A stretch of DNA of 64,000 nt. It comes from an uncultured Candidatus Saccharibacteria bacterium. GTDB taxonomy: Bacteria; Patescibacteriota; Minisyncoccia; UBA6257. The stretch lies in NCBI GenBank assembly GCA_964479005.1, contig CAYZJA010000001.1, forward strand, positions 250,225 through 314,224. Direction: 5' to 3'. A program made the position numbers and the translations under genes. Shown here in pieces: positions 6,545 through 47,175 of this stretch. How positions within the stretch are numbered: position 1 is the stretch's first letter; every line of letters starts with the position of its first letter. The notes under the pieces are model-generated. The model saw only the letters and a program-made list of their open reading frames with translations. It had not been told where the DNA came from and ran no database searches.

Positions 6545-7039
6545 TTATTTATTCTTTGCCTTTGCCACTATCACCCGACAAGGGCGAATTACTTTACCAT
6601 TAAGAATGTATCCTTTTTCTAAAATTTCTGTAATTGTATCAGGAGAAAATTTCTTATTTTCTGTTACTGCTACCACTTCGTGAAAAGCTGGATTTAATGA
6701 ATCGCCTAATTTAACTTTAATTTTCTCAATACCCTCCTTATCTAAAATATCCTCTAATTGACTTTTTATTAAATAAATTCCTTTAAGATAATGTTCATTT
6801 TCTTTTTTATCTTTTTTTTGTTTTAAAAAACTTTCAATGGCTAAATCAAATCCATCCAAGACAGCAATTAATGATTTGATAATTCTCTCATTAGAGAACC
6901 TTACAATCTCTTTAAATCTTTCTTTTTCGTCTTTCTTATAATTAATAAAATTAGCTCTTTCTTTTTGCCATCCTTTTAAATACTCGCCTTTTTCTTTTTT
7001 TAATTTTTCAAATTCTTTTTGTTTTTTGTCATCAGTCAT
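6545..7039 (-). CDS. grpE: nucleotide exchange factor GrpE
   Basis: Coiled-coil N-terminus; RxxAEFENYKKR-like motif (ERANFINYKKDEKER); C-terminal GKVIRPCRVIV; sits between hrcA and dnaK. Confidence 0.8.
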   Translation of the reverse strand: MTDDKKQKEFEKLKKEKGEYLKGWQKERANFINYKKDEKERFKEIVRFSNERIIKSLIAVLDGFDLAIESFLKQKKDKKENEHYLKGIYLIKSQLEDILDKEGIEKIKVKLGDSLNPAFHEVVAVTENKKFSPDTITEILEKGYILNGKVIRPCRVIVAKAKNK

Positions 7040-7050
7040 ATTTTTTAAAA

Positions 7051-7815
7051 TTATGATGTTAAATTAGTAATTGCCCTTAAAATAGCTATATTTCTTTTAT
7101 AAGGCATCCTTTTAGGGCCTAATATTCCTAAAATCGCCCTTGGTCTGGAAACAACGCTAAGTAAAGAACTGAATTGATCAGACCGCACAAAAGGATTCTC
7201 TTTCCCTATTAGGATAAGCGGATTTTCATCAATCTTTATGTTTTTTAACTTTTCATCCAATTTTTCCAAAGATTCGGCTATCTGTTGAAAAAATCTACAA
7301 GTTAATAATTCTTCTTCAAGCATTTCCGCAAACATATACTTAAACCCTTGTTTGATTATTTCATCTTCTTCAAATAAATAACAAAAACAAAACGAATGGC
7401 TCTCTTCTGATATCACATCTAATAATTTCTTTATTTCTTTTATAAAATCGATATGCTCTTTTGGCTTAGGTTTAATTTTTAATACCTGACTCTTTAATTT
7501 TTCTTCCCATTCTTCTAAAGAATCGTTTTCGTCCTCAAAGACATTATCAATAAAAAATTTCCAGGCCTTGTCTGTTGGTATACGCCCGCTTGAAATATAA
7601 GGTTTATATAAATAACCTTCTTGAGTAAGTATTACAAAATCATTTCTAATTGTTGCTGAACTTACGCCGAGACGATATTTAGCATTCAAAATTTCAGAAG
7701 CAACAGGTTCACCAGTACGGGTATATTCTTTAATTAAAACTTTTAGAATATAACTGTTTCTATCTTTTAATTTTATTACCATATTATTTTCATTCTCTAT
7801 TTTACTCATTAGCAA
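7051..7815 (-). CDS. hrcA: heat-inducible transcriptional repressor HrcA
   Basis: N-terminal winged HTH (RNSYILKVLIKEYTRTGEPVASEIL...SSATIRNDFVILTQEGYLYKPYISSGRIPTD); first gene of hrcA-grpE-dnaK-dnaJ; true start may be the internal Met (MVIKLK...) at ~7782. Confidence 0.8.
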   Translation of the reverse strand: MLMSKIENENNMVIKLKDRNSYILKVLIKEYTRTGEPVASEILNAKYRLGVSSATIRNDFVILTQEGYLYKPYISSGRIPTDKAWKFFIDNVFEDENDSLEEWEEKLKSQVLKIKPKPKEHIDFIKEIKKLLDVISEESHSFCFCYLFEEDEIIKQGFKYMFAEMLEEELLTCRFFQQIAESLEKLDEKLKNIKIDENPLILIGKENPFVRSDQFSSLLSVVSRPRAILGILGPKRMPYKRNIAILRAITNLTS

Positions 7816-14682: not shown

Positions 14683-14777
14683 AATCTATAGCTCGTCTGA
14701 TGGAATATTATATTAATTTATTGTTCCTCATCTGGAGGAACATTATATTAATTTATCAAAATTTGATAAATTAATTA

Positions 14778-16556
14778 TTATTCCTCGTCCGGAGGAATAT
14801 TATAATAATTTATTAAAAATTGTTCAACTTCTCTAAAAGCTAAAGTTACTGTATAACTAGCAGCTTCTTTGCCCCATTGTGGTCTATCCATTTTTACTAA
14901 AACAATATATTTGGGATTTGAAGCTGGAAAGAACCCCACAAAGGTGTGAATAACATCATCAGAATACCCTTTTTTATCTTTTAGAGCCACAAAAGAAGTC
15001 CCTGTCTTGCCAGCAAGGCTATAGCCTTTAACTTTAGCATTCCCACCAAAACCATTTTCAATTACTCCGATTAACATTGAGGTTAAGGTTTCTGCGGTTT
15101 CCTGTTTTATTACTTGAGGAAAATCTGATAAAGATTCAGTTAACATTAGAGTAGTGCGATTACCGGCTTTGTCTCTTGTACTTTCCACTAAATATGGAGT
15201 AACTAAATGTCCTTTATTCGCTATTGCCGTATAAGCTTTAAGTAATTCCATAGGCGTAACAGATATTCCAACTCCATAAGAAGCAGTTGCAGAATATGTG
15301 GGATTGGATTTTGGATATTCTAAATTAGATAAATCACCACTGACTTCTAAAGGTAAATCTATTCCCGTTGTATCTGCAAAACCAAATTTTTTAAAATATT
15401 TTCTTAAATTCTCACTTCCTACTTTCTCAGATACAAAAATTGCTCCGGTATTTATAGAACGCTCTAAAACATCGCGCATTGTAGACTTTCCATGAACTTC
15501 ATTTCGATAATTAGTCAAATGAAAACCACCCACTTCATAATACCCTTTATCAATATAAGTAGTATCTGGAGTAACTTTATCAATATCAAGACCAACTGCC
15601 ATAGTAAAAGGTTTTATCACTGAGCCAGGTTCGTATCTTTCTTCTGTAGCAAAATTTCTAAAAATTGAATAATTCTCTATATCAGAAAAATCATTAAGAT
15701 TAAATGTTGGTATATTGGCTAACGCTAAAATTCTTCCTGTTTTTACTTCCATTACAATAATTGTACCTTTACTTGCTTCCCTGTACTTTATCAAATCCTC
15801 CAAAATTCTGTCAGTAGCAAATTGAATATTTTTATCTATAGTGGTTTCAATTGAAAGTCCTTGAATAGTTTTTTCTTCTTCAGAAAAGTTGGAACGAACT
15901 AAACGCCCCAAGGCATCTTTAATGCCCATAAAAATGCCTTTCTTGCCAGAAAGAATAGTATCATAATAAGATTCCAATCCATAACGCCCTTTAATTAATC
16001 CGTCGTCCGTCTCTCCTACAAATCCAATTACTTGGGCAGCAGAAGAACCTAATGGATAATAGCGATAACTCTCCTCTTCAAGATAAATACCTTTTATCTG
16101 CGCGTTCTGAATATTATCAATCAAATCATCGTCTTCAATTTTTTTAAGAAGTGGCTCATATGGATCATCTGCTTTATTTAAACGTGAAAATATCTGCTCA
16201 TAAGACAAAGGAATTATTTTTGATAAAAGCTCACTTGCTTCTTCTGGGTTTTCTATTTCTTTTGGAATGGCGTAAAGAGAATCATATTTTTTATTAATGG
16301 CAACAGGAATATATTCCTTATTTTTATCCTGAAAATAAATTAAACCCCTATTAGGGGGTAAAATTGTAGTTGTATCATGAAGAGCTTCTGCCTGATTTAC
16401 AAACTTTAAATTCTCTTTTACCTGAATGTTATAAAGCCGATAACCTAAAAATAGAAAAAGAATAATAAATAAAAAATGAATAACGGAAATTTTTCCTTGA
16501 AAAGATTGGCTATTTCTACGAGTCCTTTTAAAAAAATTCTTATTTTTTCTTCTCAT
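14778..16556 (-). CDS. ftsI: peptidoglycan D,D-transpeptidase FtsI (PBP3-type class B PBP)
   Basis: N-terminal TM anchor; SxxK (GSVIKPF), SxN (RSINTG), KTG (AGKTGTS); dcw-cluster position. Confidence 0.8.
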   Translation of the reverse strand: MRRKNKNFFKRTRRNSQSFQGKISVIHFLFIILFLFLGYRLYNIQVKENLKFVNQAEALHDTTTILPPNRGLIYFQDKNKEYIPVAINKKYDSLYAIPKEIENPEEASELLSKIIPLSYEQIFSRLNKADDPYEPLLKKIEDDDLIDNIQNAQIKGIYLEEESYRYYPLGSSAAQVIGFVGETDDGLIKGRYGLESYYDTILSGKKGIFMGIKDALGRLVRSNFSEEEKTIQGLSIETTIDKNIQFATDRILEDLIKYREASKGTIIVMEVKTGRILALANIPTFNLNDFSDIENYSIFRNFATEERYEPGSVIKPFTMAVGLDIDKVTPDTTYIDKGYYEVGGFHLTNYRNEVHGKSTMRDVLERSINTGAIFVSEKVGSENLRKYFKKFGFADTTGIDLPLEVSGDLSNLEYPKSNPTYSATASYGVGISVTPMELLKAYTAIANKGHLVTPYLVESTRDKAGNRTTLMLTESLSDFPQVIKQETAETLTSMLIGVIENGFGGNAKVKGYSLAGKTGTSFVALKDKKGYSDDVIHTFVGFFPASNPKYIVLVKMDRPQWGKEAASYTVTLAFREVEQFLINYYNIPPDEE

Positions 16557-29007: not shown

Positions 29008-29057
29008 AACTAAATTATATCACAAATTTGGGTCGGCGACCGAATTAGATAGCTCCG

Positions 29058-29086
29058 GGAACTGGACGATGTTAGAACCTGTTTTA
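29058..29086 (-). repeat. island repeat motif copy 1 (GGGAACTGGACGATGTTAGAACCTGTTTT)
   Basis: Identical 29-mer also at 31399-31427; partial copies at 30777-30794 and 32250-32265; ~50 nt upstream of start of ORF 28819..29007. Confidence 0.85.
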
Positions 29087-29151
29087 TGTAGAAAAACGGG
29101 ACCACCAAATTTCGTGCCAGCGAAACTAGCACGCTGCAGTTCCCCACTAAA

Positions 29152-31341: not shown

Positions 31342-31398
31342 ATTCTACCAAAAAACCGCCTCTTTTACGAGACGATTCTTCTTAAAAAAATCCGCTCT

Positions 31399-31427
31399 GG
31401 GAACTGGACGATGTTAGAACCTGTTTT
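31399..31427 (-). repeat. island repeat motif copy 3 (GGGAACTGGACGATGTTAGAACCTGTTTT)
   Basis: Identical to copy 1; ~57 nt upstream of ORF 30811..31341 start. Confidence 0.85.
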
Positions 31428-31460
31428 GGATAATAAAAATCTACAACATATAGTAAATCT

Positions 31461-31778
31461 TCAATTATCTTTGGGAATTTTTATTGTCTTTTTCCCTCTT
31501 TCCTTTCTCTTTTTTTTTGACTTTCTTCCACTCAATGCCCATTCAAGCCATTCTTTTTTCTCTATTCCAGACTGCCTGATCATTGTTCTAAGAGTTAATT
31601 CTGGATAAGACTTCGCATTTGTATTAAAATTTATTTCTACTATTTTATCATCTCCACTACTAATCCAAACCTTCCAATCATCATGAGAACCATCTTTAGA
31701 TTTAAAAAAACTAAAACCGTGAGATTTTAGAAAATTAATAACATCTTTATATGACCAATTACGAAATCTTCTTGGCAT
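31461..31778 (-). CDS. HicA-family toxin (YcfA-like mRNA interferase) with K-rich C-terminal tail
   Basis: ...FLKSHGFSFFKSKDGSHDDWKV... (GSH motif) and ...TLRTMIRQSGI match HicA pattern. Confidence 0.6.
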   Translation of the reverse strand: MPRRFRNWSYKDVINFLKSHGFSFFKSKDGSHDDWKVWISSGDDKIVEINFNTNAKSYPELTLRTMIRQSGIEKKEWLEWALSGRKSKKKRKERGKKTIKIPKDN

Positions 31779-32323: not shown

Positions 32324-33565
32324 TTACAAAATGGGATTTTTCTTTTCTAGTAAATCCTTAACTGTGATTAGCCTTATTTCTAACTCCTTCTTATTTTTAA
32401 TCCTTGCTACTTCCTCGTAAGCACCCTTAGTAAAACTAAAAGCTACAATATAACCCTTTTTATAATTTGCCCTTTTTAGGGCAGTCTCAAAATTATCTAT
32501 AACATTACGCCCTACTTTATCAGACTGCTTTACCTGTATTCCTGCTTCTTCAGTTAAAACACTCCTTGGGTAATAACCATCTAGCCCCATATCCCCAACT
32601 TTCTTTCTGCTCGCATTAGCCCTCATTTTGTCTATCACTACCCAGTTTTGAAACTCAAAAGGTTCTAATTTTTTTACTTCCTCTATTGTAGTCGGCATAC
32701 CAATCACTTCATAATCAATACCCTCTATCGTTCCTAAAGTTTTTCCTAATCTTCGTTGCATTATCTTGATTGCTGTTGGTGAAATATCTATTCCTATCCA
32801 CCTTCTACCCAATCGTTGAGCTACAGCTACTGTTGTTCCGCAACCACAAAAAGCGTCTAAAACTATATCATTTTTGTTTGAGGACGCCTCTATTATTCTT
32901 TTTAAAAGTGCTTCTGGTTTTTGGGTGGGATAACCTACTCGCTCTTCTGCCATTGGATTTATTACGGGTATATTCCATACATCTTCCACCATTTTCCCTA
33001 ACGGATTACCTTCCCACTTATAGACTTTCTTTTTTCCACCTGGTCTTCTAATAGCGACTTCGTCTTTTAGTTCTCGGCAGTATTCTTCCTTAAGACTCGG
33101 TTCATTATAATTAAAAGTCCAATTATCTCCTTTTGTATAAAAATAAATTGTATCGTGTTTTCTTGGAAACCTTGTTTTACTTTGTCCGCCGCCCTTATAA
33201 GCCCAAATAATCTCATTTCTAAAATTTTCTACCCCAAATATCTCATCTAACATAATTCTTATATGAGCGTTGGCATGCCAATCGCAATGTATGTAAAAAG
33301 AGCCTGTAGATTTCAATATCTCATACAATGCTTGAACTCTTGGTTTAAGCCAACTAATATAATTTTCTGTTCCGCCCTCCCATCTATCTTTAAAACTTCT
33401 AATCTCCGCCTCATCGCCAAATACAACTTCATACTGTTTATGAGTAAAAAATGGCGGGTCAATATAAATCAGATCTATACTCTCTTTAGGAAGTTTAGCT
33501 AACTCTTCTAAATTATCGCCGCAAATAAGTTTGTTAATCTGCCAAAGTTTATTCTGATTAGACAT
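32324..33565 (-). CDS. beta-class N6-adenine/N4-cytosine DNA methyltransferase (orphan, no adjacent restriction enzyme)
   Basis: Motif IV IYIDPPFF near N-terminus; motif I VLDAFCGCGTTVAVAQRLGRRWIGIDIS near C-terminal half. Confidence 0.85.
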   Translation of the reverse strand: MSNQNKLWQINKLICGDNLEELAKLPKESIDLIYIDPPFFTHKQYEVVFGDEAEIRSFKDRWEGGTENYISWLKPRVQALYEILKSTGSFYIHCDWHANAHIRIMLDEIFGVENFRNEIIWAYKGGGQSKTRFPRKHDTIYFYTKGDNWTFNYNEPSLKEEYCRELKDEVAIRRPGGKKKVYKWEGNPLGKMVEDVWNIPVINPMAEERVGYPTQKPEALLKRIIEASSNKNDIVLDAFCGCGTTVAVAQRLGRRWIGIDISPTAIKIMQRRLGKTLGTIEGIDYEVIGMPTTIEEVKKLEPFEFQNWVVIDKMRANASRKKVGDMGLDGYYPRSVLTEEAGIQVKQSDKVGRNVIDNFETALKRANYKKGYIVAFSFTKGAYEEVARIKNKKELEIRLITVKDLLEKKNPIL

Positions 33566-33718: not shown

Positions 33719-33910
33719 TGCCATATCCTATATTAGAACTTAGGCAACTTTGATTATTTAGTTTTTACAATTAAAGAATAACATAAATTGATAAAAAGGG
33801 AAGCAGAATTGTACCCTCGTTAATTATATTAATCAATCACCATTTTAGCTTTATTTAGTCATATTTTATTGCTAAAATAGGGTTGAATAAGACATAATTA
33901 TATTATTTAT

Positions 33911-34744
33911 ATGACTGACAAAAAAATGCAAGGATGGCTCTCAGAGGCTAAAAATCCTAAAATAGAGCAAACAATAAGACTTCTAAAAATTAATAAAGAA
34001 TTTTTAAAGGATGTAGCTGTTTTACGAAAAAAATGGCCTAGTTTTATAGAAAAACATAAAACAGCAATAGATAAAATTATAATAGAACTAATAAAAATGG
34101 CTTATCAAGGATTCTTGAAGAAAGAAAAACCTTCCGATGTCGTTGAAAAAGCAAAAAAAAAGAATTTATTTCGCTCTGAAGAGCCAACTAAAGAAAATCT
34201 CTTTACCGCCAACACTAAATTTAATCAAGATATATTAGATCTATGTGAAAAATACAAACTCTATCCTATTAGTCTTTGGCGATATAGGGTAGCTATTTTT
34301 ATTGTAACTAATGATTTTTCTATTTCTAATAAATTAGCAGGAATGGATTTAGCAAAATATTTATCTCCAGAAGAAATAAGCCAAATTCCTGAAGATATGA
34401 ATTTTAGTCTTAAAATCGAAAAAAATAAAGATACCAAGGAACTAGAGTTATTCATTCAAGTATATGAAACTACATCTTTACGAGATTTGAAAAAATATTG
34501 GCATATGGTAAAACATTCTCAAGATAAGCTAAAAAAGGCCAAAAAGATAGACAAAAGATACTATCCTAAAAAAGGTCTAGAAACTGCAGAAAAGTTATTC
34601 ACATTAGATAAAACTAAATCAAAGTCTGATTGGGAAAAACATGATGCTATATATGGAGAACCTACTTCTTCTAGTAAAAAAGACGGGGAAAAAGAAACCA
34701 AAAAAACTAAAAATTTAAAAAGAATTAGGTATCGATATAAATAG
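33911..34744 (+). CDS. hypothetical Lys-rich protein
   Basis: ORF only; terminated by hairpin at 34808-34832. Confidence 0.4.
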   Translation: MTDKKMQGWLSEAKNPKIEQTIRLLKINKEFLKDVAVLRKKWPSFIEKHKTAIDKIIIELIKMAYQGFLKKEKPSDVVEKAKKKNLFRSEEPTKENLFTANTKFNQDILDLCEKYKLYPISLWRYRVAIFIVTNDFSISNKLAGMDLAKYLSPEEISQIPEDMNFSLKIEKNKDTKELELFIQVYETTSLRDLKKYWHMVKHSQDKLKKAKKIDKRYYPKKGLETAEKLFTLDKTKSKSDWEKHDAIYGEPTSSSKKDGEKETKKTKNLKRIRYRYK

Positions 34745-34807
34745 ATTTTTAAATTCGTAATTTGGGCTCATATCTTGAGACCAGTTTAAATTAGCAATTT
34801 TGTATAA

Positions 34808-34837
34808 TAACTCCAGAGATAATCTGGAGTTTTATGT
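34808..34837 (+). terminator. rho-independent terminator AACTCCAGA-GATAA-TCTGGAGTTTTAT
   Basis: 9-bp stem + T-run downstream of ORF 33911..34744. Confidence 0.7.
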
Positions 34838-35001
34838 TATTAAGCAAAAAAGCAATTAAGGAATTTAAAACGATCTATACCCGAAAATTTCATCAGGATA
34901 TAGATGACAAAACTGCTCAGGAAATGGCTAAAAGGCTCCTCCTGCTCTTTAAAATTGTCTATAAGCCCCCAACTAATAAACAATCAACTAAATATGACTA
35001 A
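34834..35001 (+). CDS. hypothetical 55-aa protein (MLLSKKAIKEFKTIYTRKFHQDIDDKTAQEMAKRLLLLFKIVYKPPTNKQSTKYD)
   Basis: Manual translation; below ORF-track cutoff; stop overlaps ATG of next ORF in ATGACTAA arrangement. Confidence 0.25.
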   Translation: MLLSKKAIKEFKTIYTRKFHQDIDDKTAQEMAKRLLLLFKIVYKPPTNKQSTKYD

Positions 35002-35290
35002 CGATAAATCTTATAATAATCTTAAAAAATGCCCTCGTTTTGATAGGTGCAATCAAAATTTATGTCCTCTTGATATAAGGCTTTCATTAAGAATCGGAGG
35101 ATCTGCTGAAAAATGTCGCTGGATGAGACCCCCTTCGAAGAAAACTATTCATGGTAAGGTCTTTATATCAGGAGGGCAGGTTATGCCAGATGGTTTATTG
35201 AATTTTGTGCCTGAGAGCAATTTAGAGTGGCTTAATACCCCCTCTAAAAAAAGATGGTTAGAAATTAAAAAAAATGAAACAAAATCCTAA
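34994..35290 (+). CDS. hypothetical Cys-rich small protein (CPRFDRCNQNLCPLD...)
   Basis: ORF-track entry 34904..35290 trimmed to internal Met that overlaps the preceding stop. Confidence 0.35.
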   Translation: MTNDKSYNNLKKCPRFDRCNQNLCPLDIRLSLRIGGSAEKCRWMRPPSKKTIHGKVFISGGQVMPDGLLNFVPESNLEWLNTPSKKRWLEIKKNETKS

Positions 35291-35795
35291 TACTAAATTG
35301 AAGCTTAGACCTTTACGTCTCAGGGGTGTCCCTTTTGCTTGGCAGGATACTAGATTAATCCCAAAAATCCGAGAGCATTTTCATAAAGAAAAGCTTACAA
35401 CTGCCCTTGCTTTATACTTTGTTTTAACAGAACTTGCTAGTATTGAAGGAAAAGGACAAGGAAAACATATAAATTGTTTAAAGGCATATCTAAAAACAAT
35501 AGCAGATCGTTGTGGTAAATCGGTATCAACAACCAAAAGATATCTCAAGGATTTTAAAAAATACAAAATTATATCCTGGAACAATCGTCGTAAAGGATTG
35601 ATGAATTTATCAAATGAATGGTTATTACTTCATTATTACCAGCCCACTAATGAACGTACCTCTATTCATAATGATAAACCTGTTATAAAGAATTATATAA
35701 AAAGAAGTTTTATTAATAATAAAAGGAATTATAAAAATGATAAAGATAAAGGGTTCGTTCCTATTAAGGAAATCATTGGCCGGAAGTATAAATAA
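35274..35795 (+). CDS. hypothetical basic protein with probable winged-helix DNA-binding region
   Basis: ORF only; ...TTALALYFVLTELAS...KSVSTTKRYLKDFKKYKII looks HTH-like. Confidence 0.35.
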   Translation: MKQNPNTKLKLRPLRLRGVPFAWQDTRLIPKIREHFHKEKLTTALALYFVLTELASIEGKGQGKHINCLKAYLKTIADRCGKSVSTTKRYLKDFKKYKIISWNNRRKGLMNLSNEWLLLHYYQPTNERTSIHNDKPVIKNYIKRSFINNKRNYKNDKDKGFVPIKEIIGRKYK

Positions 35796-35805
35796 GCTTG
35801 TAAAT

Positions 35806-36030
35806 TTAAGGGGGGGTATAGGGGGGTTCGCGCGCGCGAGGAATAATAAAAGATTTGCATAACAGTTGCAGTTGATTTTCATAAAGCAAAAGAGATATAA
35901 TAAAATATTGACCCAGATACCTCACAGGGAATCAATCTAGCGATAATGTCCTTAAAGGGGCGGTCTATACCAGTATTGCTGGATCCTTGTGAAACAGTGG
36001 GGCTGGGTCAATTATAGGCCGTCCCTTTAA
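35806..36030. other. GC-rich non-coding region upstream of recombinase: G7-TATA-G6, (CG)5 tract, and interleaved inverted repeats (TTAAAGGGGCGGTCTATA/TATAGGCCGTCCCTTTAA; TTGACCCAG/CTGGGTCAA)
   Basis: Read from sequence; right arm of the 18-bp imperfect dyad ends 10 nt before the recombinase ATG. Confidence 0.5.
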
Positions 36031-36040
36031 TTCTAAATTT

Positions 36041-37636
36041 ATGGAACAAATAACATCAAAAATTAAATATTTTCTTTATGCAAGAAAATCATCTGAATCT
36101 GAAGATAGACAGGTAGCTTCAATTGATTCACAAATAAAAGAATTAACTGGGGTAGCTAAGAAAGAAAAGCTAAAAATCATTGATGTTCTCACTGAATCTC
36201 AGTCAGCAAAGGCACCAGGAAGAAGCCAGTTTAATGATATGATCCAGAGAATCTCCAAAGGAGAAGCCCAGGGAATTTTATGTTGGAAGCTGGATAGATT
36301 AGCCAGAAACCCTATCGATGGCGGAAATATCATGTGGTTACTTCAGAGTAATACAATAAAACATATCAAAACATACAATAGGGATTATTATCCTACTGAT
36401 AATGTTTTGATGATGAGTGTAGAATTTGGCATGGCAAATCAGTTTATAAGAGATCTGAGTGAAAATACAAAGAGAGGGCTAAGAGCAAAGGCAGAAAAAG
36501 GATGGTATCCTACCTATGCCTCTTTAGGTTATATGCATAATCCTTTAAAAAGAAAAGGAGAAAAAGAAATTATTAAAGACCCGGAAAGGTTTGATCTTAT
36601 AAGAAAGATATTTGATTTAATGCTTACTGGTTGCTATACACCGCCTAAAATTTTAAAAATCGCTACTGAGAAATGGGGATTAAAAAATAAGCAAGGAGGA
36701 AAAGTTGCCAGAAGTACTGTTTATAGAATACTAACTGATCCATTTTATTATGGTCAATTTGAATATCCAAAAGAAAGTGGAAATTGGTATAAGGGCAAAC
36801 ATAAACTTATGATAACTCTAGAAGAATATGACAAAATTCAAATTTTACTTGGGAGAAAAGGTAAACCTCGATCTAAAACGCATACTTTCGCTTTTACCGG
36901 AATGATTAGATGTAGCGAATGCGAAGCAATGATTACAGCCGAAGAAAAAATTAAAATACAAAAAAACGGAAATATTCATAAATATATTTATTATCATTGC
37001 ACCAAGAAAAAAGATTCTCATTGCTCCCAAAAATCTATAGAACAAAAAGAATTAGAAAAACAAATCCTGGATATTTTGGGTGGAATTGAAATTCCTCCAG
37101 AATTTCATCAATGGGCAATGAAGTGGATACAAATTGAAAATAAAAAAGAAAGTAAAGCAAGGAACCAAATTATAGTAAACCATCAAGAAAGCTATAAAAA
37201 ATGTTTAAAGAGAATTGATAATCTTATTGATATGAGATCTGCTGAGGATATAACGAAAAAAGAATTTCTGAGAAAAAAATCGGAGTTAAGTCAGGAAAAG
37301 ATTCGATTAGAAGAATTACTCGCGGATACAGGAAACAGAATTAATAAACAATTAGAGAAAGCTGAGGAAGCATTTTTATTTGCTGAAAAAGCTAAAGAAA
37401 GATTTGAAAATGGAGACATCAAAGACAAAAAAGAAATTCTAACAGCCCTAGGTTCGAACCTCATTTTAAAAGATAAAAAGCTAAGTATAACAATACAAAA
37501 ACCACTTTTCCTTATTGAAAAAGTGGCCAAACAGGTTAAAGCAATTAATCAAAGGTTAGAACCTCTGAAAAACCGCATAACAAATAACGAATTGGAGGAA
37601 ATCTATCTTCAAAATCCTACGTTGCTCCGCGGGTAG
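36041..37636 (+). CDS. large serine recombinase (integrase-type)
   Basis: Resolvase catalytic domain with active-site Ser (YARKSSESEDRQVASIDSQ), recombinase domain, zinc ribbon (CSEC...YYHCTKK), C-terminal coiled coil; 3' end overlaps tRNA-Asn. Confidence 0.9.
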   Translation: MEQITSKIKYFLYARKSSESEDRQVASIDSQIKELTGVAKKEKLKIIDVLTESQSAKAPGRSQFNDMIQRISKGEAQGILCWKLDRLARNPIDGGNIMWLLQSNTIKHIKTYNRDYYPTDNVLMMSVEFGMANQFIRDLSENTKRGLRAKAEKGWYPTYASLGYMHNPLKRKGEKEIIKDPERFDLIRKIFDLMLTGCYTPPKILKIATEKWGLKNKQGGKVARSTVYRILTDPFYYGQFEYPKESGNWYKGKHKLMITLEEYDKIQILLGRKGKPRSKTHTFAFTGMIRCSECEAMITAEEKIKIQKNGNIHKYIYYHCTKKKDSHCSQKSIEQKELEKQILDILGGIEIPPEFHQWAMKWIQIENKKESKARNQIIVNHQESYKKCLKRIDNLIDMRSAEDITKKEFLRKKSELSQEKIRLEELLADTGNRINKQLEKAEEAFLFAEKAKERFENGDIKDKKEILTALGSNLILKDKKLSITIQKPLFLIEKVAKQVKAINQRLEPLKNRITNNELEEIYLQNPTLLRG

Positions 37637-37920
37637 GATTCGAACCTACAACCTACTGGTTACACCTAATCTCTAAGTTTCCTTAAAGGGTGGACTATAT
37701 CTTCACCTTGTCTGTTTAAAACAGATTTAGGTGTCTCGGTATCTAGTCTCTACGGCGCCCCCGTGTTATAACACAAGGTTCCCACGGTATTAGCATAGTT
37801 TGATATTATCAAACTTTAGCCTTCACCGTTATCCCGAGATGTTCATTCCAAGGTTTCCCCTGAAAGCTGCGAAATAGGAATCATCCACAGCCAGACGCTC
37901 TACCATTGAGCTACCGCGGA
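37625..37920 (-). tRNA. tRNA-Asn (anticodon GUU) interrupted by a ~224-nt group I-like intron in the anticodon loop; CCA not encoded
   Basis: 5' exon TCCGCGGTAGCTCAATGGTAGAGCGTCTGGCTGT (37887-37920) + 3' exon TAACCAGTAGGTTGTAGGTTCGAATCCTACCCGCGGAG (37625-37662) give cloverleaf with U1-A72, G73, loop CUGUUAA, T-loop GGTTCGAATCC. Confidence 0.7.
37663..37886 (-). other. group I (IC3-like) intron within tRNA-Asn
   Basis: Begins after exon U and ends with G; internal guide GCAGCU 17 nt in can pair exon GGCUGU (U.G at splice site); contains GUAGAGACUAGA...CACCUAA matching the J8/7-P7-P9.0 segment of Azoarcus/cyanobacterial tRNA group I introns; GGGGAAACC near 5' end. Confidence 0.6.
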
Positions 37921-37937
37921 ATGTTTTGATTATACTA

Positions 37938-38555
37938 TTATTTTTTTGATTTATCAAATAGATTATTGGTTTTGGCAACTATTGGGCCTTTTGATTTGGA
38001 ATAAAGTGATTTTTTCCGTTTATTATATGGAACTTCTGCTGGCGAAGATAAAAATTCTACTGCTATCTGACAAATATGCATATCAGGGTATAAAGCCACT
38101 GGCAAATTAGATTGATTGCTAATTTCCAATGTCAAAGTCCCCTCAAATCCTGGATCTACAAAACCAGCTGTATGCACTAAAATTCCCATTCTGGCTAAAG
38201 TGCTTTTGCCTTCTATCTTTAAAACCATATCATCTGGCACTTTTACATATTCTTTAGTGCTAACTAAAATAAAATCATTGGGATGTAAAATAAAAGATTC
38301 CCCTATCTTTACTTTTTTAGTAATAATAAAATCTTCGTCTGGCAACCTTTTTTTAGTATCTAAAAGGCATTGCTTGGTAACATTAAATTTTTTAAAAATC
38401 GGCCCTAATTTCAAATCAATAGAAGCAGGGCCTATTTGACCCTTACTTAAACTCGGTTTAAAAATTAACTTTTTACTTTTTATTACCTTTTTTATATCTC
38501 TGTCTGAAAGAATCATATTATTTTTAATTTTACCTTTATATTTAGAAATTATCAA
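37938..38555 (-). CDS. dcd: dCTP deaminase
   Basis: MILSDRDIKK...GQIGPASIDLKLG... trimeric dUTPase-fold Dcd signature. Confidence 0.85.
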   Translation of the reverse strand: MIISKYKGKIKNNMILSDRDIKKVIKSKKLIFKPSLSKGQIGPASIDLKLGPIFKKFNVTKQCLLDTKKRLPDEDFIITKKVKIGESFILHPNDFILVSTKEYVKVPDDMVLKIEGKSTLARMGILVHTAGFVDPGFEGTLTLEISNQSNLPVALYPDMHICQIAVEFLSSPAEVPYNKRKKSLYSKSKGPIVAKTNNLFDKSKK

Positions 38556-45620: not shown

Positions 45621-45745
45621 ACCCCGTTAGAAATTCTTGGCAAAAATAATTTTTAAAATTATTTTTGCAATCATCTAAATATCTCTAAATATTATATCTT
45701 TTACTATAGATTACTTTTACTTATAAGACTAATTTCTAACGGGGT
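45621..45745. repeat. 15-bp perfect inverted repeat ACCCCGTTAGAAATT/AATTTCTAACGGGGT separated by 95 nt, enclosing a 14-bp AT palindrome (45640-45668)
   Basis: Right arm encodes the last codons and stop of lysS; left arm is ~20 nt upstream of serS start. Confidence 0.7.
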
Positions 45746-47175
45746 TTCATAAATGGAAAAAGAATTACTTCTTTTAATGAAGATGAGCGGGTTAGAACTG
45801 CTATTAATCTGTCAATGCCTATGCCCAAGCCAGCTGTTGGCGGCATACCATATTCTAATGCCTCAATATAATCTATATCCTGTGGATGAGCTTCAATATC
45901 CCCTTTTTTCTTCATTCCTGTCTGCTTTTTAAACCTCTCTTTTTGATCTATTGGATCATTTAATTCAGAAAAACCATTTACTATCTCAGAGCCAAAAACA
46001 ATAAATTGGAAACGCGCTGTTTTTTCAAGATCATCAATCTTTTTCTTTGCCAAAGGAGATATTTCTAAAGGATGATCAATGATAAAAGTTGGTTTAATAA
46101 TCTTCCCGCGTAATTTTTTAAAAATAATGTCTGCTATTTTTTCTTTTGAATCTATCCTATCTACAAAAACACCCAATGATTTTGCTTTCTTTAACCATTT
46201 ATCTTTATTATCACGAAGATTTAATCCTATTTCTTTCTCTAAAAATTCTTCAAAACCAACCTTTCTCCATATTTTTTTAAGAAAAACTTTTGCATCAGGA
46301 ATATCTTTTTTAAATTTCTTCACCAAAAATTTAAATAATTCTTCGATTAATTTCATTAAATCTTCTCTGGTCTTATAGGCGCTATATAATTCCAACATAG
46401 TAAACTCAGGATTATGTTCCCTATCAATGCCCTCATTTCTAAAGCATTTTCCAATCTCATAGACGTTTTCAAATCCACCGACAATGAGACGTTTTAAATA
46501 AAGTTCTGGCGCTATCCTTAAATAGATTTTCATTTTTAAAGTTTCCAAGTGTGTAACAAAAGGATTGGCAAATGCGCCACCATATAAAGGCTGTAAAATT
46601 GGTGTTTCTACTTCTTGATATTCTTTTTTATTCAAAAATTCCCTTATTGAAGAAATAATTTGACTACGAAGAATAAATCTTTTCTTCACCTCCTCATTTT
46701 CCAATAAATCAAGATAACGCCTGCGAAAACGTTCCTCTGCGTTCTCTAATCCATACCACTCCTTTGGTAGCGCCCTCAAGCTTTTAGATAATAATTTAAA
46801 ATTTTTTACTTCTAAGGTTTTTTCTCCCCTTTTTGTTTTAAAAAGAATGCCTTGCGCTTCTAAAAAATCGCCTAAATCAAAAAAATCCTGAAAGAATTTC
46901 ATCTTGTCCTGACCTATCTTGTCTTGTTTAAATAAAAGCTGAATTTTTTCAGTTTGGTCTTTAATATCTACAAAAACAGCGCCACCATGTCCCCTAATTC
47001 CCCAAATTCTTCCTGCTAAAATAATTTTCTTTTTATTGCGAGACCAAATAGAAAAATTATCTAATGCCTGAATAATAGAAAATTGACGATGAGTTTTTTC
47101 AGGGTAAGGATCAATACCTAATTTCCTCAGCTTTTTTATCTTTTTTATTCGTTCTTTTATTAAATCAGATAACAT
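45736..47175 (-). CDS. lysS: lysyl-tRNA synthetase (class II)
   Basis: N-terminal OB anticodon-binding domain, class II motifs (FRNEG, GLGIGIDRL). Confidence 0.9.
   Translation of the reverse strand: MLSDLIKERIKKIKKLRKLGIDPYPEKTHRQFSIIQALDNFSIWSRNKKKIILAGRIWGIRGHGGAVFVDIKDQTEKIQLLFKQDKIGQDKMKFFQDFFDLGDFLEAQGILFKTKRGEKTLEVKNFKLLSKSLRALPKEWYGLENAEERFRRRYLDLLENEEVKKRFILRSQIISSIREFLNKKEYQEVETPILQPLYGGAFANPFVTHLETLKMKIYLRIAPELYLKRLIVGGFENVYEIGKCFRNEGIDREHNPEFTMLELYSAYKTREDLMKLIEELFKFLVKKFKKDIPDAKVFLKKIWRKVGFEEFLEKEIGLNLRDNKDKWLKKAKSLGVFVDRIDSKEKIADIIFKKLRGKIIKPTFIIDHPLEISPLAKKKIDDLEKTARFQFIVFGSEIVNGFSELNDPIDQKERFKKQTGMKKKGDIEAHPQDIDYIEALEYGMPPTAGLGIGIDRLIAVLTRSSSLKEVILFPFMKPR

Follow-up and report, generated by a model that had tools for sequence, protein, structure and literature searches.

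The 64-kb stretch of contig CAYZJA010000001.1 analysed here (the window, with positions counted from its first nucleotide) very probably carries a chromosomal tRNA-Asn(GUU) gene of a probable member of the Patescibacteria, in which a 224-nt group I intron without an open reading frame (ORF) separates U35 from U36, the intron being an endonuclease-less derivative of a mobile one. As read from the sequence, the split gene lies on the minus strand at 37920-37625 and consists of a 34-nt 5′ exon, the 224-nt intron and a 38-nt 3′ exon. The 5′ exon (TCCGCGGTAGCTCAATGGTAGAGCGTCTGGCTGT, 37887-37920) holds tRNA positions 1-35 and ends in CUGU, with U35 at 37887. The intron (37663-37886) runs GGATGATT...GATTAGGTG, with GGAUGA as its first bases and UUAGGUG as its last, and closes with a terminal G (omega-G) at 37663. 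The 3′ exon (TAACCAGTAGGTTGTAGGTTCGAATCCTACCCGCGGAG, 37625-37662) holds positions 36-73, starts with UAA (TAACCAG... in the gene) and ends ...CCGCGGAG with G73; CCA is not encoded. Joined, the exons form a 72-nt cloverleaf that ARAGORN calls tRNA-Asn(GTT), with U1-A72, G73 and the anticodon loop CUGUUAA. A first-pass annotation, made from the letters of the window, had proposed a tRNA-Asn(GUU) split by an insert of about 224 nt at 37625-37920, which is exactly what the minus-strand sequence contains. Upstream, ending 8 nt before the tRNA 5′ end, is a sigma-70-like sequence, TTGATA-17-TATAAT (37929-37957, minus strand), that matches the consensus at 11 of 12 positions and, from this consensus match only, is taken as a putative promoter.

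The Rfam model Intron_gpI (RF00028) matches 37896-37671 over its full length (model positions 1-253 of 253), with 64.4 bits against a gathering score of 50 and E 3.5e-16, in a search of 37550-38000 (451 nt). This match above threshold, together with covariation from P1 to P9 in an 82-sequence alignment (see below), bears out the first-pass identification of the insert as a group I intron. A secondary structure was drawn by extending the RF00028 alignment; helices P1 to P9 can all be drawn, and all 74 proposed pairs are canonical in the window intron. In P1 the exon sequence GGCUGU (37892-37887) pairs with the internal guide GCAGCU (37870-37865), which puts a U35.G wobble at the 5′ splice site. 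The P2 hairpin (37847-37864) is capped by a GAAA tetraloop at 37857-37854 and has compensatory changes in all seven of its pairs across the family. P3 pairs UCUCGG (37834-37839) with CCGAGA (37739-37734), and the P4-P5-P5a-P6-P6a domain (37754-37829) has an internal loop in P5, GCUAAAG/CUAUGC, that resembles a tetraloop receptor. P7, the presumed guanosine-binding helix, pairs 37744-37750 (a G, a bulged A and GACUA) with UAGUCC at 37697-37692. The P8/P8a hairpin (37704-37733) is followed by J8/7 (37703-37698), and P9.0 and P9 occupy 37664-37691, where a 3-bp P9.0 (ACC at 37691-37689 with GGU at 37666-37664) encloses P9, whose GAAA loop lies at 37681-37678, and, itself covarying, immediately precedes the terminal G. 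All these elements are on the minus strand. P2.1, P5abc and P7.1/7.2 are absent from the intron, no nucleotides separate the 3′ strand of P3 from P8, there are internal loops in both P5 and P8, and L2 and L9 are both GAAA. The splice-site features described at first pass, namely a 5′ splice site after U, a guide GCAGCU that pairs with exon GGCUGU through a U.G pair, and a terminal G, are thus all seen in the fold. The segment GUAGAGACUAGA...CACCUAA, which had been labelled J8/7-P7-P9.0, is real and was mislabelled: it comprises J6/7, the P7 5′ strand, J7/3, the P3 3′ strand and the P8 5′ strand. The true J8/7 and P7 3′ strand, AAGAUAUAGUCC, lie further downstream at 37703-37692.

Homologues were collected with the core pattern AGAGACTAGA-N30-60-AAGATATAGTC, which was run against a single genome for each species. 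This identified at least 119 loci, nearly all from genomes of Patescibacteria, also known as the Candidate Phyla Radiation (CPR). After re-mapping of boundaries, at least 87 of them fit the form CUGU/intron...G/N (slashes mark the splice sites), in 45 tRNA-Asp(GUC), 32 tRNA-Asn(GUU), 9 tRNA-Tyr(GUA) and 1 tRNA-His(GUG) genes, and among the loci listed the ARAGORN call for the spliced product agrees in 87 of 87. The first-pass remark that tRNA group I introns are rare in bacteria does not apply to Patescibacteria, where about 40% of genomes carry group I introns (PMC13011429) and at least 87 introns are found here at 35/36. An alignment of 81 homologues and the window intron (82 sequences, the basis of all covariation results unless otherwise stated) has 85.4% of its cells paired, compared with 71.3% in shuffles and about 41% when partners are slid by 1-3 columns, and its covariation score is 0.386 versus 0.153 in shuffles. 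In P3, 100% of cells are paired with changes on both sides at five of six pairs; P4 contains a switch between A-U and U-A (47 versus 35 sequences), and the closing pair of P8 one between C-G and U-A (45 versus 34 sequences). Covariation is also seen in P2, P5a, P6a, P8a, P9.0 and P9. All 82 sequences have the same exon pairs in P1, namely C32-G, U33-A, G34-C and U35.G. Across the window and its four closest intron-bearing alleles, pairing is kept in 99.1% of cells and double changes are seen at four pairs; the ribozyme is therefore under selection.

The locus can be followed through close relatives. When metagenomes were searched with the protein of the dCTP-deaminase gene next to it, 30 syntenic loci were returned (individual loci are referred to by L numbers). 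In 13 of these an uninterrupted tRNA gene lies downstream of the dCTP-deaminase gene and reads CTGT/TAA, which is the predicted ligated junction, so that the identity as tRNA-Asn suggested at first pass is confirmed by alleles that read CTGTTAA straight across it. One of these intron-less orthologues, with three mismatches to the window exons, scores 74.4 bits as a tRNA (RF00005). In loci with a dCTP-deaminase gene that is 85-90% identical in DNA to that of the window, the tRNA-Asn gene is found in three states: intron-less, with a short ORF-less intron, and with a long intron. Intron-less alleles are of two types, CACGCTGT/TAACGTG and CTGGCTGT/TAACCAG. Ten loci have the anticodon stem CACG/CGTG and differ from the window exons at 7-8 positions, and three more distant loci have the stem CTGG/CCAG and three exon differences. 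The short intron is found in the window (224 nt) and in L124 (227 nt). The long intron (520-524 nt) is found in L125, L128 and L129, and its ribozyme part is about 90-95% identical to the window intron. Exons of the intron-bearing alleles are near-identical (0-1 mismatch) despite 10-15% difference in the flanks, the 5′ exon of the window being identical to, or one mismatch from, those of L124, L125, L128 and L129. In a neighbour-joining tree of the dCTP-deaminase gene, in which L136 was mis-extracted and is to be disregarded, the three states are interleaved, which as a single-gene result is weak evidence.

The additional length of the long introns is due to an insertion of about 300 nt in L1 that encodes a 105-aa protein with the motif CxxC...HH...CxxCH, the 3′ end of its ORF overlapping the guide sequence and P2. 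Against Pfam, this protein covers the whole HNH model with a score below threshold (E 0.0074, 16.9 versus 21.4 bits). Homologues of it (56-67% identical) are present in L1 of six of six tRNA-Asn introns longer than 500 nt among the loci listed, in other CPR groups, and a homology search found none in the 64-kb window. By this comparison the window intron appears to be an endonuclease-less derivative of a mobile intron that carries an HNH-like ORF in L1 in close relatives. Free-standing copies of the HNH-like ORF occur beside tRNA genes with ORF-less introns at L053:3261-3539, L108:3010-3315, L061:3025-3273, L033:2615-2848 and L103:3000-3257, and could provide an endonuclease that aids homing of the intron.

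In the model of Goddard and Burt, group I introns with HNH endonuclease genes pass through a homing cycle of invasion, loss of the endonuclease gene and loss of the intron. The intron-less, ORF-containing and ORF-less alleles at one syntenic locus resemble the states of that cycle, and the pattern would fit homing with co-conversion of exon sequence. The present case differs in that HNH activity and its target are predicted, from a Pfam match below threshold, and that the tree is of a single gene. Whether the intron is still cycling is close to an even question, with the negative answer slightly the likelier. The interleaved states speak for cycling, as does exon sequence that goes with the intron, which would be co-conversion; the 4-bp exon part of P1 (C32-U35) could permit moves among the Asn, Asp, Tyr and His tRNAs with GUN anticodons, and a free-standing endonuclease would amount to “collaborative homing”. 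If true, continued cycling would contradict the published inference that tRNA introns have limited mobility in bacteria.

The 3′ end of the tRNA gene is also the boundary of a second element. A large serine recombinase/integrase gene (36041-37636, plus strand) is convergent with the tRNA gene and ends in 12 nt, CTCCGCGGGTAG, that are complementary to the tRNA 3′ end. The protein has the Pfam domains Resolvase (PF00239), Recombinase (PF07508) and Zn_ribbon_recom (PF13408) and matches the integrase family phrog_95 (E 2.4e-67). Together with four small ORFs it makes up an integrated element of about 3.8 kb (33806-37624), the distal boundary of which is approximate and is placed where homology with an occupied relative, L125, stops near 33806. 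One of the small ORFs (35274-35795, plus strand), by a weak PHROG match (E about 1e-4), resembles a replication initiator or DnaD-like loader. The syntenic loci all match the window through ...CCGCGGAG-C and then diverge, so that the proximal junction lies directly after G73+1; since every syntenic locus diverges at this point, the tRNA 3′ end is an insertion hot spot. L125, with the ORF-bearing intron, and the intron-less L149 both carry at this junction an integrase 89-90% identical to that of the window. The integrase is missing from L124 and L128, both intron-bearing, and from L126, L127 and others. The occurrence of the element without the intron, and of the intron without the element, shows that the two are independent. 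Thus, the earlier description of the intron as sitting in the attachment tRNA of a mobile element is right in that the tRNA 3′ end is the element junction; the intron itself is no part of the element and occurs independently of it.

In its domain set, PHROG match, junction at a tRNA 3′ end and occupied and unoccupied alleles, this element resembles integrative elements of tRNA 3′ ends and those with large serine integrases (phiC31, CcrAB, XisF). Targeting of tRNA genes is typical of tyrosine rather than serine integrases. A search of the window found no repeat of the tRNA 3′ end and no long direct repeats marking the element ends, as expected for a serine integrase, and the predicted restored empty site is ...CCGCGGAGC joined directly to GGATATTTT... 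No relative of the integrase turned up in the viral contig collection. Distant homologues of it (about 27-45% identical) also abut intron-containing tRNA-Asn or tRNA-Asp genes, in L065, L102 and L103. In L102:2194-4080 (minus strand) and L103:1876-2592 (plus strand), integrase-homologue frames run antisense through the tRNA 3′ exon and from P9 into P7, the peptide GVDYIF being the antisense of GAAGATATAGTCC; the integrase of L103 is divided between two frames. In L129 the whole tRNA-Asn gene with its ORF-bearing intron (6610-7201) is inverted relative to the dCTP-deaminase gene, and beside it the distal end of the integrase element recurs as a copy of 62 nt (7262-7323), with no integrase gene; the inversion may be recombinase-mediated, or a scar.

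The proximity of this element raises the question of whether the split tRNA is its cargo rather than a host gene. In favour of cargo, there is an overlap of 12 nt between the integrase gene and the tRNA 3′ end, and exon sequences track the presence of the intron and not the flanking gene. However, conservation with relatives that have no element takes in everything from the dCTP-deaminase gene to the end of the tRNA and is lost only past G73+1, the element also adjoins the intron-less allele of L149, and the intron is also present without the element in L124 and L128, all of which makes a cargo origin very improbable. Even less credit can be given to the identification of the gene as tRNA-Thr(UGU) with an intron of equal length at 33/34 (CU/GU...GG/UGUAA), which is the call that ARAGORN makes when introns are allowed with -i, tRNA-Thr(tgt) i(33,224). 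The ambiguity is real, since with these boundaries, too, the 5′ splice site follows a U and the intron ends in G. Such a placement would nevertheless put the splice site at U33, which is in a Watson-Crick pair with A, when the wobble at U35 is invariant (82 of 82), and would require as terminal G the intron nucleotide G222, which lies within the covarying P9.0. The syntenic intron-less alleles read CTGTTAA (GTT), the gene has U1-A72 and G73, with U1 in 32 of 32 Asn-type homologues among the loci listed, and an identical miscall shifted by 2 nt has been refuted by sequenced spliced products (PMC13011429). From the wobble at U35, the position of G222 inside P9.0 and the CTGT/TAA junction of the intron-less alleles it follows that the tRNA is tRNA-Asn, that the splice site is at 35/36 and that the Thr call of ARAGORN is wrong.

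Somewhat less remote, and still improbable, is that the locus is decaying debris, with an endonuclease-less intron unable to splice and a cell that uses another tRNA-Asn. The homing endonuclease ORF is indeed gone, with no homologue in the window. On the other hand, the covariance-model match is full-length, every helix is intact, pairing in the closest relatives remains at the level given above, other intron-bearing alleles share its exons with at most one mismatch, and a near-consensus promoter sequence is kept. In all syntenic relatives the same locus is a tRNA-Asn gene, and identical contigs were recovered from several metagenomes. Several points weigh against the interpretation preferred here, that of a functional tRNA-Asn(GUU) gene with a spliceable intron. 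P10, as read from the sequence, is weak, with at most 2 bp. P7 is invariant in all 82 sequences and uninformative, as the search pattern selected for it, and conservation of the core is likewise partly built in by that pattern. Self-splicing and essentiality of the window copy are inferred by analogy, from conservation and from the published in vitro splicing of related tRNA-Asn introns. The phylum of the host is similarly deduced, from characters that include a GC content of 31% and the CPR genomes in which the nearest introns and proteins are found, which make Patescibacteria the probable source.

On the preferred interpretation, the tRNA-Asn would be transcribed from its own putative sigma-70-like promoter, and the intron would fold into the compact P1-P9 core that the comparative data support. 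Nucleotides 30-35 of the tRNA (GGCUGU) would pair with the guide GCAGCU and set the U35.G wobble at the 5′ splice site, where exogenous guanosine is predicted to cleave after U35. The terminal G at 37663, positioned by the 3-bp P9.0, would then enter the guanosine-binding site in P7, and ligation of the exons would give the loop CUGUUAA. End trimming and addition of CCA would presumably finish the tRNA. ARAGORN and Rfam scans found no other tRNA-Asn in the 64-kb window. Small genomes of this type usually have one gene per anticodon (PMC13011429), and tRNA-Asn is syntenic in all relatives, on which grounds splicing of the gene is probably essential.

Introns of this kind have been described before. 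Bacterial tRNA group I introns were extended from 4 to 21 classes by Williams 2020 (bioRxiv 10.1101/2020.01.27.920355), who, as cited in PMC13011429, named one of them “Asn.4Ug”. Precise, GTP-dependent self-splicing in vitro was demonstrated for tRNA-Asn 35/36 introns of Patescibacteria by Nakagawa et al. (2026, mSystems, PMC13011429), and HNH endonuclease genes were reported in four tRNA-Asn introns (PMC13011429). The window intron belongs to this published and experimentally validated class and is a new example rather than a new kind. It shares with the class the tRNA, the insertion site, the U before the 5′ splice site and the terminal G, and its 224 nt fall within their range of 184-894 nt; further likenesses are the same ARAGORN miscall as Thr(UGU) at 33/34, HNH ORFs in some members and a Patescibacteria-type host. 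It differs in its three syntenic states and in the tracking of exon sequence with the intron, where limited mobility was inferred in PMC13011429.

Its subgroup can be stated less simply. The four classical bacterial tRNA intron types are labelled IC3 (bioRxiv 10.1101/2020.01.27.920355), and 25 of 28 introns at 35/36 were assigned to IA by best-scoring subgroup covariance model (PMC13011429). The first-pass description “IC3-like” therefore holds for the compact architecture, which fits, and is at odds with the published classification, which puts the 35/36 introns of Patescibacteria in IA. The hallmarks of IC3 introns are a P2 without P2.1, the absence of P5abc and of P7.1/7.2, a P9.0, and GNRA loops at L2 and L9 for which P8 and P5 have receptor-like loops. 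Like the introns of Azoarcus tRNA-Ile(CAU) and of cyanobacterial tRNA-Leu(UAA) and tRNA-fMet, that of the window has a P1-P9 core that is compact (about 200-250 nt) and lacks P2.1, P5abc and P7.1/7.2. P2 and P9 are each capped by GAAA, P5 and P8 contain receptor-like loops, and P9.0 adjoins the terminal G. The host tRNA and the site are different, being 35/36 here as against 34/35, 33/34 or 36/37 in the classical introns. Introns in tRNA-Leu(UAA), CAU and tRNA-Phe genes that were also retrieved by the core pattern contain the same 21-nt core strings and are 64-74% identical to the window intron. Identity to the Azoarcus intron is about 67%, in an alignment that spans the complete 3′ core, a figure to be taken as a lead only, and J8/7 here is AAGAUAUAGUC, the form in Tetrahymena and many phage introns, unlike that in Azoarcus. 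The same 21-nt core strings occur in more than 120 IMG/VR viral contigs (L154-L273), mostly with a longer P8 spacer, and about eight of these lie within intron-containing tRNA calls of ARAGORN (e.g. Leu UAA and Gln UUG). No tRNA-Asn 35/36 intron was found among these contigs, and a BLAST search of the locus against the phage collection gave no match. The choice between IA and IC3 is without effect on the proposed mechanism.

Several other features of the window were recorded. A LOOT RNA (RF03000; 33632-33746, minus strand; 72.1 bits against a threshold of 46.4) lies just past the distal boundary of the integrase element, in a part of the window (about 28.8-33.8 kb) that is variable among relatives; a literature search on LOOT RNA returned nothing useful. 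Next to it in the variable region is a gene (32324-33565, minus strand) for an N6/N4 DNA methyltransferase fused to an Mrr-type restriction nuclease domain, and the same region contains a toxin-like ORF (31461-31778, minus strand) with a weak match to phrog_353 (E 1.9e-6). A 45-nt direct repeat, GCTCYGGGAACTGGACGATGTTAGAACCTGTTTT, is present at 29052-29096 and 31394-31438 (87% identical); homology of the window with L129 begins at the first copy, and sequence surrounding the second also has a match downstream of tRNA-Asn in both L128 and L153. At 14687-14814 a 36-nt unit occurs three times (copies 78-83% identical, with spacings of 35 and 57 nt); the copies sit between two minus-strand ORFs and reach into the 3′ end of ORF 14778-16556. 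The class II synthetase at 45736-47175, the sole class IIb synthetase in the window, was considered as an asparaginyl- or aspartyl-tRNA synthetase and rejected, being a lysyl-tRNA synthetase.

The intron goes unreported in whole-window (64-kb) Rfam scans in both gathering and E-value modes, which return tRNA-Glu, tRNA-Gln and the LOOT RNA only. Given the score of RF00028 in the short search, these misses are losses in the speed filters and not signs of a weak or chance match. The ORF-bearing intron of L128 is likewise unreported in a 20-kb Rfam scan. Default ARAGORN also misses the split tRNA-Asn, its calls in the window being tRNA-Glu and tRNA-Gln only. Group I introns of this sort are probably under-called in routine annotation, and a genome of this kind would score as being without tRNA-Asn, which would skew completeness estimates for small-genome bacteria.

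The basic phenomenon has already been published and validated; the series of alleles and an integrase element that is independent of the intron add to it usefully, without being surprises. The window provides one more case of an apparently single-copy decoding tRNA that probably relies on self-splicing of a ribozyme. The natural allele series, in which one locus is found empty, with an ORF-bearing intron or with an ORF-less one, could serve studies of how introns home in uncultured CPR bacteria.

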